DNA of 64,000 nt, taken from NCBI GenBank assembly GCA_044892525.1, contig CM097887.1, forward strand, positions 34,224,001-34,288,000, read 5' to 3'. Below the pieces are notes generated by a model. It did no database searches. It had not been told where the DNA came from and saw nothing but the letters and a program-made list of their open reading frames with translations. The stretch comes from Schmidtea polychroa (lineage: Eukaryota). The translations under genes and the position numbers were made by a program. This document shows, in pieces, positions 6,001 through 32,407 of this stretch. Positions within the stretch are counted from its first letter, which is position 1; each line of letters starts with the position of its first letter.

Positions 6001-7121
6001 AATATTTTACATAAAAATTGCTGGGGTTCACATTAAGCAGTTTAAAAGAAATTTGCAGGCGCAATGAAATGTACAAATCGATAAAATGGAAAACTTTTAA
6101 AAATTAATAACCACGTGTATTTTGAGTGTATAATTAATTTTGTAATTACTAATATACCTATATAAATGTATATTATATAAAATAATATAAATTTTAATAA
6201 TAATATAAAATTTAATAATATTATATATTGAAGTTGTTTAGTACTTGATAATGACAGAAGAATTGTCAAAATATATTGCAAAAATTGATTTTATTAATTA
6301 TTTATTTAAATATAAAAACCAACATATTTATGATGAAAATGGAAACAGTAAGAAATTGATAAAAATATATCAATTAACCTTAAATTATTATAAGAACTTT
6401 TTTTCCAATTTCAGCACTGGTCATTTTTTCCATTGAATTTATTAAAAAGAGAGCTTGAAGATTATAAATCAGTAGTATATCGATGTTTTATGATACCCAC
6501 GAATTTTCGGCACTGCCTTTTACAAGTGAATTTCTTAACCTTAAATTAATGTGATTTCCTATGAAAGATAAATGCAAAAACTACAAATTAATTCATTAAT
6601 TAAATAACTATTTACCACATTAATCATTGTGAAGTATGAAAATTACATAATTAAATATTACAAATTGTAACAGAAAAATGAAACAGTACATTATTTATAA
6701 TAGTTTTCATTGATTTAATTAAATTATTATTCATTTACATTTTAATTATTAAAAATTTGGTTCTGAAAACTCATTTGCAATTAATTGAACCTTCAATCAA
6801 AATTTAAATTAAATATTTAATAATATTTAAAATATAAAATTAATATATTATTAATTAATAAACACAATTAAGTTTCAAGATCACACAAATAAACAGAAAC
6901 AATAAGTAAATGAAATGTTTACTAAAACTTTTTTTTAAAAATCTTTGTCAAAATATCTATTAAAATACTTAAAAATAAATTAAAAATAAATTGAAAACTA
7001 AATTGATACCGATCAAGGTGATTATTCCATCTTGGACAACTGGATTGTCAGGAATCTCAAGCAAATGTTGCTCTAAATCATCGAAAATGCCATCCAGATT
7101 TTGAGGGTCGCTTAGACTCAT
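2943..7121 (-). CDS. Spliced gene, N-terminal Sec14/CRAL-TRIO domain of the Trio/Kalirin/MCF2L/PLEKHG4/SESTD1 type; 3' part continues off the left edge
   Basis: Exons 7121-7010 (MSLSD..VVQDGIITLI-G), 5006-4780 (GSYDRQKTPIVVFP..EYYYKII..GISFLIDFRAGS), tentative 4700-4676 and 4139 to about 4020, and 3059-2943 (ELNEYVDSQNLTNEFGGLLKYDHTTWL). They have GT-AG ends, and the first junction is phase-compatible. The motifs parallel Trio LSGGRDKRGGPILTFP, GFTVIVDMR and VDPSQLTPEFDGCLEYNHEEW. The junction into 3059 is uncertain. Confidence 0.8.
3861..4010 (+). repeat. Truncated copy of a TGTATGTTTGTATG-containing interspersed repeat (Helitron/HINE-like)
   Basis: Aligns by eye with 12010-12305 and the reverse complement of 13388-13730. 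The superfamily is inferred. Confidence 0.55.
4780..5006 (-). CDS. Sec14-domain gene, exon 2
   Basis: Acceptor TTCAG and donor CAG|GTAAAT; 227 nt open; core Sec14 motifs. Confidence 0.85.
5309..5340 (-). mobile_element. Helitron-like 3' terminus
   Basis: On the minus strand a GC hairpin GGCGCC-TTA-GGCGCC lies about 10 nt before CTAG|T. The 5' end was not found. Confidence 0.4.
6388..6531 (-). repeat. Repeat-family copy with hammerhead-like motif (6531-6495), core mutated
   Basis: Minus strand reads AUUCAC UUGUAAA A GGCAGUGCC GAAA AUUC GUGGGU. Helix I pairs fully with two G-U wobbles; position A6 is U. Confidence 0.7.
7010..7121 (-). CDS. Sec14-domain gene, first coding exon
   Basis: ATG at 7121, 37 codons plus 1 nt, donor G|GTATCA; joins in phase 1 to the 5006 exon to give Gly. 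Confidence 0.75.
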
Positions 7122-7276
7122 TGAATATATTATTTTTACTTTGAACAAATTGGAAAATGAAATTTTATTTTTATAATCTCCAAATTTGTGAGTCAGACAG
7201 ACATTTTTTGTGCCAATTTATTGAGTCACATTGACAATCAATAGCAGGAATTCTTCTCCTGGTCGTTTGTGCTTCC

Positions 7277-31300: not shown

Positions 31301-32407
31301 ATAAATTGAAAATGTACTTTTTCCTGTTTATTTTATTATAAGAACTTTTTTCCAATTTCGCCACTGATTTTTTTTCCATTGAATTTATTAAAAAGATCTT
31401 GAAGACTATAAATCAGTAAATATATCGATGTTTTTGATATTCACGAATTTTCGTCAATTTTATTTCACTATTATCCGAATCAACAGTGGCTCGTCCATAT
31501 AAGAAATGAAAGCATTGCTTGCACTTCAATTTTGAGAAATTCTAAATTTTTAATATCTTTTAAAAAGAACTTTTGGCTACTAAAGACAAATTTTATGATT
31601 TAGTAATTAAAGAATTTTGTAGAAAAACAAGAAGAATTGAGTTTTTATATAAATAAAATTCTTTTTTTGAATTTTTTTTATTGCTTTCACAAATTTTTTG
31701 AGTTTTGAGTAGCCACTGCATTACAATAAAATACATCTTACAATATATCAGTTTGCGTTAATTTTTCACGCTTCAATTTCTCCTTTTTTCTTCTACTCTA
31801 CTATAATTATGATAGCTTTCTAGCACAGTCCTCGGTTTCTCTCATTTCACATTTCAGTAGAAAGACTGAGTTTTAATAATTGTAGTTTTTTGTATAGACC
31901 TTTATTTTTATTATTCTTTATTTTTATTATATTTTCAATTTACTCATATTTTTTTTATTGTTAGTTTTATTGGTAACAATGCAGTCAAGGGAACAGCACG
32001 GAGACATGGCACGATTTGAAATGAAAGTTAATTACGTTTATCGAATTGACACATCGAAATTCACTGAGATGCACCCAGATTTTCTGGCATCAATGAACGG
32101 GATAATGTCCAATCAATTTATTCACTCAACCTTCCCAATGTGGATCAAGGAAGCAGATCTGAAATGTAAATGTCCTTCTTTGCAACTTGGAATGACTTAT
32201 TTAGTCATTCTCAAATTACACACAATAAAATATTTGGAAAGATCTGAATTGTTATTGGATCAAAAAAGTGTCGCGCTTCCGTGGCAGAAAACTTGGGAAC
32301 GTCGAATGAAAAAATTTTCAAGTAAAGAACATCAGGGTCTATGTGAGAAATGGAAATTGAAGCGTCGATATTATAGACGACAGAAACAAACAAAAAAATA
32401 TGTGTAA
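9023..32407 (+). CDS. Netrin: Netrin (UNC-6/netrin-1 type), 5 exons, about 656 aa
   Basis: Exons 9023-10133, 16312-16500, 20866-21021, 29454-29525 and 31965-32407 are all GT-AG and phase 1. They total 1971 nt (657 codons including TAA). Signal peptide, laminin N-terminal domain, three laminin EGF repeats and an NTR/C345C domain are encoded. An extra linker exon in intron 3 cannot be excluded. Confidence 0.92.
10735..10880 (-). repeat. Repeat-family copy, hairpin type
   Basis: Arms of 42 bp (10778-10819 and 10839-10880) have 3 mismatches. Confidence 0.8.
11080..11460 (-). pseudogene. Mariner transposase C-terminal remnant
   Basis: Minus-strand peptides [16 protein letters not shown] and [25 protein letters not shown]; stops and frameshifts; HPPYSPDL segment missing. 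Confidence 0.8.
12010..12305 (+). repeat. Interspersed repeat, left member of an inverted pair
   Basis: About 300 bp, clearly alignable with the reverse complement of 13388-13730. Confidence 0.75.
12900..13300 (+). pseudogene. Possible decayed Polinton/Maverick-type protein-primed DNA polymerase B fragment
   Basis: [15 protein letters not shown] (13127-13171), preceded by NENILTAE and KEARENEFF. This resembles the YVGxxILDLSKxLMYxF region from memory; multiple stops. Confidence 0.4.
13388..13730 (-). repeat. Interspersed repeat, right member of an inverted pair
   Basis: Inverted relative to 12010-12305 and carrying an extra internal segment shared with the 3861 copy. Confidence 0.75.
16312..16500 (+). 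CDS. Netrin: Netrin exon 2 (LE2)
   Basis: [43 protein letters not shown] acceptor and GTAAGC donor; 189 nt. Confidence 0.95.
16893..17032 (-). ncRNA. Repeat-family copy with a minimal type I hammerhead ribozyme motif (17032-16996)
   Basis: Minus strand reads AUUCAC UUGAAAA A GGC-AGU-GCC GAAA AUUC GUCUAU. The core is the U3-A8 variant and the helix III palindrome is AAUU. Helix I has 2 mismatches here but is perfect (GUGAAU) in the copies at 29880 and 31440. Confidence 0.65.
17334..17802. mobile_element. Older hAT-type MITE
   Basis: Right end GTAAACGCGCCACTG and decayed left end AGTGGAGTGTTTAAAG, with GGCCCTAGG subterminal motifs at both ends. Flanks GGGGATAT and GGAGATAC match at 6/8. Confidence 0.55.
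18353..19619 (-). mobile_element. Non-autonomous Helitron-like element
   Basis: Minus strand starts TCTTCTAAACTATAAACG..TGTTTGT at 19619 and ends CCCATGCGAAGCCGG..CTAG|T at 18353. Confidence 0.55.
20161..20367. mobile_element. piggyBac-like MITE, copy 1
   Basis: Ends TTAACCTATTA and TAATGGGTTGA; internal sequence aligns with 54051-54266. Confidence 0.55.
20866..21021 (+). CDS. Netrin: Netrin exon 3 (LE3), absent from the ORF track
   Basis: [51 protein letters not shown] acceptor and GTAAGC donor; 156 nt. Confidence 0.95.
21326..21932. mobile_element. hAT (Buster-type) MITE, 607 bp
   Basis: Perfect 15-bp TIR CAGAGCTCCGCAACC and perfect 8-bp TSD AGGTACAC (21318-21325 and 21933-21940) with central TA. 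Confidence 0.95.
23564..24269 (-). mobile_element. Non-autonomous MULE, 706 bp
   Basis: Imperfect inverted arms of about 140 bp built from GGAAAAAATGACATCCAA-like subrepeats; perfect 9-bp TSD ATTAATGAA. An internal AT-hook-like RRGRGRPR remnant is on the minus strand. Confidence 0.85.
25177..25398. mobile_element. hAT MITE, 222 bp, with G15 and (TA)n tracts
   Basis: TIR CAGTGGCGTACGCAGG matches at 14/16; perfect 8-bp TSD ATAGATAA. Confidence 0.92.
26526..28316 (+). pseudogene. MULE transposase with SWIM finger and AT-hook, two premature TAG stops
   Basis: Contains [18 protein letters not shown] and TNNALEAYN. The same frame continues past TAG 28059 and TAG 28074 into [14 protein letters not shown] and KRKRGRPAK, ending at TAG 28314-28316. 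Confidence 0.92.
28507..28760. repeat. 58-bp tandem subterminal repeat of the MULE right end
   Basis: TAGTGTGCAAA recurs at 28507, 28565, 28623, 28681 and 28737. Confidence 0.9.
28887..29183 (+). CDS. Putative 98-aa secreted or membrane-anchored protein nested in netrin intron 3, or an alternative netrin exon
   Basis: ATG followed by hydrophobic [12 protein letters not shown], two Cys, and a C-terminal hydrophobic [17 protein letters not shown]. Less AT-rich than its flanks; no family recognised. Confidence 0.45.
   Translation: MINLVKLLLILLLVVRSHNMQSMDTSSLDQQLRSDNGDCIIAIEYPNNPKPGEPYSMKCNSIPKFANIKYSLYKDVEFNKYILPISIMFLLLHIHLLW
29454..29525 (+). CDS. Netrin: Netrin exon 4 (start of NTR domain), absent from the ORF track in this frame
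   Basis: [23 protein letters not shown] matches the netrin KKYCxxDY motif; TTTCAG acceptor and G|GTTATT donor; 72 nt. Confidence 0.9.
29778..29893 (-). repeat. Repeat-family copy truncated within the hammerhead
   Basis: On the minus strand it retains GAAAAUUC-GUGAAU but lacks helix II and the 5' core. Confidence 0.75.
30480..31290 (-). pseudogene. Degenerate mariner transposase
   Basis: Minus-strand [41 protein letters not shown] and MLTIFWD; many stops; similar to the 39290-40899 element. Confidence 0.8.
31334..31453 (-). repeat. Repeat-family copy truncated within the hammerhead
   Basis: Same truncation zone as the 29778 copy; retains GAAAAUUCGUGAAU. Confidence 0.75.
31965..32407 (+). 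CDS. Netrin: Netrin exon 5 (NTR/C345C domain and basic tail)
   Basis: Contains [15 protein letters not shown] and [19 protein letters not shown] acceptor; stop TAA at 32405-32407. Confidence 0.92.

Follow-up and report, generated by a model that had tools for sequence, protein, structure and literature searches.

The DNA analysed here is a window of 64,000 nucleotides from the planarian Schmidtea polychroa (GenBank assembly GCA_044892525.1, contig CM097887.1, positions 34,224,001 to 34,288,000 of the forward strand), which is AT-rich with a GC content of 20-35%. A netrin-like gene with Laminin_N, EGF and NTR domains lies on the plus strand at 8981-32407 (Laminin_N at 8981, NTR domain at ~32140). 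Within the first 32 kb, a first-pass annotation had reported seven copies of a dispersed repeat, and all seven are present as insertions (Table 1). Their long arm lies on the minus strand in six cases and on the plus strand in one (7733). The repeat belongs to a family, here called A, with two subfamilies, in which the predicted cut after residue C17 of a hammerhead ribozyme motif is followed by GUGAGU (A1) or GUGAAU (A2). These repeats are very probably decayed, short insertions of a unit made up of hammerhead, 5' untranslated region (5'UTR) and tail, which forms the terminus of an endonuclease-bearing (EN+) Penelope-like element (PLE); the hammerhead is predicted to cut only as a dimer.

Table 1. 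Insertions of the repeat and hammerhead motifs in the window.
Position	Strand	Feature
2645..2800	-	A2 head-to-head insertion; long arm 2755->2645, short inverted arm ~2754-2800 on +; without hammerhead
6386..6533	-	Single-arm copy, A1-like; spans hammerhead to tail
6495..6531	-	Hammerhead motif; helices I and II whole, core A6->U; C17 = 6501
7733..7849	+	Small A2 head-to-head insertion; main arm 7759-7849, inverted stub 7733-7756; without hammerhead
10726..10880	-	A2 head-to-head insertion; long arm 10833->10726, short arm 10836-10879 on +; without hammerhead
16890..17039	-	Single-arm A2 copy, hammerhead to degraded tail; antisense to netrin-like gene
16996..17032	-	Hammerhead motif; U3-A8 core, helix II and AAUU whole; helix I 3' strand mutated
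29774..29894	-	5'-truncated A2 copy; begins 9 nt before cut site (29893; motif 3' half only); full tail
31333..31456	-	5'-truncated copy, mixed A1/A2 diagnostics; begins 12 nt before cut site (31452), in motif 3' half; full tail

The claim that the repeats carry a hammerhead holds for the family motif and for only part of the window, where the core is found in two of the seven copies, both damaged, while two more start in the 3' half of the motif and three are without it. With arm positions counted from the predicted cut site, the long arm at 2755->2645 spans +4 to the tail end. As had been recognised, no window copy is perfect; the motif at 6531-6495 has a changed A6, and that at 17032-16996 has a broken 3' strand in helix I. 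In the latter the predicted cut had been placed correctly, at C17002|G17001, and according to fold prediction this copy does not fold as a hammerhead. A strict hammerhead descriptor was passed by none of the eight window arms, and an Rfam search of the window at E<=10 gave no hammerhead match.

Searches of the whole 781-Mb assembly, which has four large contigs, showed that the composite consensus put together in the first-pass annotation is the true family motif. This 37-nt composite (6-bp helix I, UUGAAAA plus an extra A, GGC/AGU/GCC, GAA, AAUU and C17) has 161 exact matches, and a 33-nt variant ending in GUGAG, which has a G-U pair in helix I, has 829; the reversed-pattern control gave 0 for both. 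For a 27-28-nt pattern located mid-unit, 4,673 exact matches were counted, which sets a lower bound on the number of arms. From the density in 354 kb of regions chosen without this pattern (16 arms, 3 of these in 170 kb of evenly spaced samples), the genome total is estimated at roughly 14,000-35,000 arms, unevenly spread.

The family motif has a paired 3-8, G5, A6, A9, G12-A13-A14, U16.1 and H17, together with an extra base after A9, the G10.1-C11.1 pair and a palindromic helix-III stub; no window copy is a whole ribozyme. Helix I pairing and the core are thus both present in the consensus, and the minimum-energy structure of a perfect genomic copy is exactly helix I plus helix II (-8.6 kcal/mol, z only -1.6). 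Helix I shows a G-U/A-U exchange between A1 and A2, and a second PLE family, described below as family B, has other helices around the same core. The fetched DNA, 1.8 Mb that had been enriched on purpose, contains 98 distinct matches to a structure descriptor, and 540 kb of shuffled DNA contain 0. When positions 3/8 were left free, four hammerhead families together gave 90 U-A, 7 C-G and 1 unpaired match (shuffles 0), counts in which family A prevails, since it was the basis on which loci were selected. The hammerhead is predicted to cut after C17, and to do so as a dimer only. Co-folding of two copies in ViennaRNA favoured an alternative duplex (-26.6) over a hand-built active dimer (-10.6); nearest-neighbour energies ignore the tertiary core, and this result was counted neither way.

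Other hammerheads were also seen among the fetched genomic loci (L numbers; ATG positions are given within the locus). A further minimal family with C3-G8 occurs at L085, L265 and L276, with a 5-6-bp helix II, an AUAUAU palindrome and GU after the cut site. A separate dispersed repeat is present in five copies at four loci (L258:5010-5150 on the plus strand, L176, L254, and two copies at L263) and carries a canonical C3-G8 hammerhead after a 5' motif, with weak Rfam HH9 matches (E 0.2-0.35). We take this 5' motif to resemble the 5' end of U1 small nuclear RNA, and the repeat also has what we presume to be a word like U1 loop II; Rfam called no U1. It is possibly a U1-derived hammerhead short interspersed element (SINE), of which a literature search by title and abstract start found no case.

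Adjacency to PLE ORFs, named as a check in the first-pass annotation, was found for the family. Of 150 candidates scored in a genome-wide search for GIY-YIG, 143 were matches, and in 14 of the 20 best GIY-YIG loci the repeat unit lies on the same strand, 240-290 bp downstream of the GIY-YIG, after a common AT-rich 3' untranslated region (3'UTR) of ~240 bp that follows the GIY-YIG open reading frame (ORF). L158 contains a full-length, broken element, which reads hammerhead, leader of ~115 nt, ATG at 2261, reverse transcriptase (RT) and GIY-YIG, 3'UTR, and again hammerhead plus tail. The hammerhead unit stands at both of its ends as direct repeats ~2.85 kb apart, and the RT and GIY-YIG frames are interrupted by stops and shifts. 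The outer 3' end of the repeat lies 6 nt before the ATG of this ORF, and at 11 genomic places the tail continues into an ATG. The unit runs into the ORF start in both subfamilies, in A1 at L158/L307, L308 and L310 and in A2 at L309, and L304 is similar to L309, with an A2-type unit running into the ORF start. The linked ORF piece P0002 is over the Pfam cut-off for GIY-YIG and below it for RVT_1, and it matches the intact 856-aa PLE ORF of family B at 27% (E 6e-32). Because it is tied to GIY-YIG loci, flanks the L158 element and leads to the ORF ATG, the repeat is, judged from its sequence, the 5'UTR or pseudo-long terminal repeat (pLTR) plus tail of a protein-coding EN+ PLE and not a stand-alone family. 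The earlier proposal of a separate short, non-autonomous or retrozyme-like family is therefore not upheld, as the unit belongs to a protein-coding PLE and both A1 and A2 enter the ORF start.

Family B is found at L102:3617-6490 (G000:C2 ~183.47 Mb) and also at L101 and L103, and encodes RT and GIY-YIG in its intact ORF. Each of its ends carries a U3-A8 hammerhead particular to this family, in which helix II has 6 bp; family B also makes similar short stubs and looks younger than family A. ORF-linked or full-length copies of both families (L158, L308 and L309; L102 of family B) begin at or just inside helix I. Two further candidates were rejected. Two perfect motifs 3.5 kb apart on contig C1 (L061) are independent stubs with no ORF between them, and the 481-aa frame that follows an inverted copy at L087 is not the PLE ORF but a read-through over a TAA-type microsatellite into a pol fragment of a long terminal repeat (LTR) retrotransposon. 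At L087:1330-2125, a head-to-head PLE insertion with a GIY-YIG end lies in this microsatellite beside the pol fragment.

The anatomy of the short insertions was studied in 182 distinct arms aligned from 925 kb, after 6 of 188 matches had been removed as duplicates or misaligned. The 3' ends of the arms form two peaks ~52 nt apart, with 61 of the 182 at +55..68 and 93 at +110..123. At the 5' side, 56 arms end at -38..-27, where helix I starts, 10 reach farther upstream and 42 end inside the motif; 52 of the others end at +3..+20 and 19 later. Only 3 of the 182 end at the cut site (-2..+2), so that the footprint of in vivo cleavage sought in the arm 5' ends was not found. The 5' peaks at +4/+5, +9 and +18/19 consist largely of head-to-head junctions formed at an ATATC microhomology, and are uninformative on whether the template was cleaved. 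Loose contig ends in run X5, of which the RNA status is uncertain, accumulate at the 5' boundary and the inner 3' boundary seen in the arms.

These arms form 128 insertion groups, namely 48 head-to-head pairs, 77 single arms and 3 three-arm groups. A long arm is joined to a short one in 43 of the 48 pairs, and both arms are of the same subfamily in all 44 pairs that could be classified on both sides. Flanking direct repeats of at least 9 nt were found at 21 of the 48 pairs, compared to 4.5% of shuffled pairings, and a few of these lie in microsatellites. Pair junctions vary, target-site duplications vary in length, and many copies sit within TA or TAA runs. With two 3'-end peaks and pairs of long and short arms, the optional one-end tail of PLEs is present. 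Arms that share an insertion resemble each other no more closely than do other arms of their subfamily (92.7% vs 92.9%, p=0.73), a result that does not show use of a shared template.

From this anatomy we propose a course of insertion in which the PLE transcript would begin at helix I and the PLE protein would nick both strands of AT-rich DNA. Reverse transcription would start internally at two sites, ~+60 and ~+115 from the cut site, and a start within the unit's 5' copy would let the cDNA run off the 5' end of the RNA after ~95 or ~145 nt. Such run-off would yield single stubs, while priming at both nicks would give a long and a short arm, joined head-to-head at microhomologies. The template would be uncleaved RNA, and the ribozyme would act on full transcripts only, where the 5' and 3' copies may pair via AAUU as a dimer, with activity that would be weak or protein-assisted. 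The pile-up of 5' ends at helix I suggests that the RNA likely starts at the hammerhead, and uncleaved RNA is likely the usual template because helix I is retained in the copies and starts at C17 are rare. A PLE of Anolis has two adjacent RT start sites in vitro, cuts and extends both strands, and uses uncleaved RNA as its main template, with protein-assisted cleavage (PMC11167929). Inverted pLTRs and one-sided tails are known in PLE insertions (PMC3846280, PMC8557442). Dimeric or weak activity of minimal hammerheads has also been discussed (PMC4209133; review PMC6765202), including the dimeric PLE hammerhead variants of Lunse et al., as cited in PMC6765202.

Several points weigh against this interpretation. 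No intact family-A ORF was found among 150 scored RT matches, where the longest open frame is at least 442 aa. The arm sample is biased, as 90 of the 182 arms carry the pattern by which regions were chosen, chiefly within 2-14 Mb on contig C1. Helix II has just 3 bp, and compared with shuffles the fold of the monomer does not reach significance. The pile-up of 5' ends could instead reflect an RT stall or a template-switch hotspot at the hammerhead. The tail of ~52 nt exceeds the 30-40 nt that is commonly cited and ends before the ATG, and in the published Anolis and rotifer elements the tail is inside the ORF (PMC11167929, PMC3846280). Finally, upstream 3'UTR is found in none of 106 A2 arms, and A2 has about two links to an ORF start (L309 and L304); part of A2 may for this reason have been amplified from short masters.

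The A2 arms bear on the possibility of a SINE-like non-autonomous family, mainly A2, with its own internal promoter and mobilised in trans by PLE proteins, which we regard as unlikely. A2 differs from the ORF-linked A1 at about seven diagnostic sites, both ends of the unit are fixed, and extension upstream of helix I is seen in 10 of 70 A1 arms and in no A2 arm. Upstream ORF homology on the same strand accompanies 37 A1 arms and a single A2 arm, at loci that had been chosen with A1-derived queries. However, the A2-type L309 starts at helix I and enters a PLE ORF, as L304 similarly does, and A1, which is clearly ORF-linked, yields the same short stubs. A2 is also older than A1, with a median divergence of 5.9% (98 arms scored) vs 4.2% (66 arms scored), which fits an earlier autonomous wave.

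A different role for the cut site is conceivable, though we think it improbable. The hammerhead would be the first 37 nt of the PLE transcript, and the cut site, C17|GUGAGU, would double as the 5' splice donor for a GU-AG intron of 39 nt, giving a switch between splicing and cleavage. GUGAGU directly follows C17 in A1, and a branch-like UACUGAU, as well as an AG whose end lies 39 nt downstream, is present in both subfamilies. Binding of U1 would exclude helix I and vice versa, so that the RNA would either be spliced to a ribozyme-free mRNA or be left unspliced as RT template, and the unspliced RNA could be decapped through dimer-dependent cleavage. Against this, A2 has GUGAAU, and family B is without GU at the cut site. 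None of 47 genomic matches with T right after C17 is an exact spliced join (L297 is a near-miss deletion), which is a weak test because PLEs keep introns. No joint across the putative intron was found in the contigs of three runs guessed to be RNA, a status that is uncertain; one contig of run X5 skips 40 nt at the putative intron with three other letters between, which is not a clean splice. In Drosophila virilis, transcription of Penelope starts inside the pLTR, with a splice donor 46 bp downstream and a 5'UTR intron that has been shown (PMC2377424), and this intron ends at helix I (PMC4209133). Here the donor-like GUGAGU lies 31 nt after the start of helix I and the intron would begin at the cut site, a likeness of sequence only. 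A literature search found no report of a splice donor at a hammerhead cut site. If the overlap of donor and cut site were true, it would offer a concrete explanation for the retention of an intron plus a slow ribozyme in PLEs.

Spread as a non-LTR retrozyme, via small self-cleaved and circularised RNAs, is highly unlikely. Animal retrozymes are likewise non-coding with a type I hammerhead, and have been proposed as derivatives of PLE pLTRs (bioRxiv 10.64898/2026.07.22.740005). They are, however, head-to-tail arrays of hammerhead-bearing monomers, and the repeat family is not. The tandem copies that had been suggested as a further check are essentially missing; none of the 128 groups is a two-arm same-strand group, and same-strand arms occur only in the 3 complex three-arm groups, which largely refutes this route. 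The boundaries are fixed and not permuted, with few arms beginning at the cut site as given above, and no cis dimer of adjoining arms is possible because these lie on opposite strands.

The dispersed motifs look like passengers, as the core is no better conserved than downstream positions and decay appears neutral. For positions of the same base class, the mutated fractions in core vs downstream were 6.0% vs 6.8% for G/C and 2.4% vs 3.1% for A/T in A1, and 16.4% vs 11.1% and 2.6% vs 4.1%, respectively, in A2. Purifying selection on the core after insertion was not detected in any comparison (all p>0.18). There are hundreds of perfect motifs in the genome, which might suggest that hosts keep active cis-regulatory ribozymes, e.g., in netrin introns, yet this is even less probable. 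The core mutates like downstream positions, and the motif is intact in only 14 of 37 A1 and 3 of 28 A2 arms that span it. The netrin-like gene holds four copies, among them the insertion at 10726..10880 between its exons; in all four the long arm is antisense and none is intact, which refutes host retention for the window.

Least probable of all is a miniature inverted-repeat transposable element (MITE) or fold-back DNA transposon with the arms as terminal inverted repeats and a hammerhead likeness by chance, for although many copies are palindromic, it is refuted by the linkage of the unit to RT plus GIY-YIG, by the absence of descriptor matches in shuffles and by the asymmetric ends of the pairs, with their variable junctions and variable duplication lengths.

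Several other features of the window were recorded. Within the netrin-like gene lie a MULE transposase ORF of 541 aa (26436-28061) and an intronic hairpin (18715-18782) that matches mir-753, a flatworm family, at 61.3 bits (Rfam cut-off 62) and bantam weakly. A 58-bp satellite is at 28505-28808. A gypsy-like pol fragment (RT, RNase H and integrase) with an in-frame stop is at 1-2098 on the plus strand. A TRRAP/Tra1-like gene with many exons occupies 41600-63450 on the plus strand, with a pyrimidine-rich repeat block at 47775-48664. Inverted-repeat pairs typical of remnants of MITEs or DNA transposons are at 12043-13645, 23601-24262, 40301-40564, 43377-44224 and 51325-51682, and duplicated, putative mariner-like fragments at 39618-40639.

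The identification of a Penelope-type minimal hammerhead with U3-A8 in a pLTR-like repeat agrees with both the PLE linkage and the published features of minimal hammerhead ribozymes (min-HHRs). The closest system is formed by the min-HHRs that metazoan PLEs carry in their pLTRs, among them the U3-A8 variant found in Cercyon elements of Schistosoma mansoni, a core with ~1,300 matches in that genome (Cervera and de la Pena 2014, PMC4209133). As in S. mansoni, the motif is of type I, lacks helix III, is palindromic at 15.2-16.2, and has an extra nucleotide between 9 and 10.1, a G10.1-C11.1 pair and U3-A8 covariation. PLE min-HHRs are also mostly single and dispersed, with some opposite-strand pairs and few in full PLEs (PMC4209133). 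Unlike in S. mansoni, with helices II and I of 7-8 bp and 4-5 bp (PMC4209133), helix II has 3 bp and helix I 6 bp here, and the host genome is AT-rich.

The Poseidon PLE of Anolis carolinensis (PAc) similarly has a hammerhead near the ORF start, two 3' ends that define the tail, AT-rich targets, use of both strands and uncleaved RNA as apparent template (PMC11167929). The PAc ORF begins inside the hammerhead, and RT starts 111-118 nt into the ORF (PMC11167929), whereas the unit here is an untranslated leader that ends 6 nt before the ATG. The insertions also resemble the layout of Adineta vaga Penelope and EN+ PLEs, where an inverted 5'-truncated pLTR lies beside a direct one, with palindromic junctions, a one-end tail, target-site duplications, microsatellite targets and solo pLTRs; those rotifer families are near single-copy (PMC3846280, PMC8557442), whereas stubs here number thousands to tens of thousands. 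By the features tested, the repeat belongs to an EN+ PLE as its min-HHR-bearing terminal unit, and U3-A8, the extra base and the palindrome are already published. The differences from published cases are modest, i.e., the 3-bp helix II, the ~52-nt tail wholly before the ATG and the high number of stubs. A literature search found no report of a planarian min-HHR, although the supplements of PMC4209133 may list planarian motifs.

Collectively, the analysis adds one PLE family of very high abundance, whose hammerhead variant is known and whose helix II is unusually short. With their thousands of copies, the stubs are a natural record of how a PLE inserts, in which the start is fixed at helix I, two RT start sites are likewise fixed, and a long arm is joined to a short one as a rule. 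This record agrees with the single in vitro study of a PLE, and argues for uncleaved RNA as the template.

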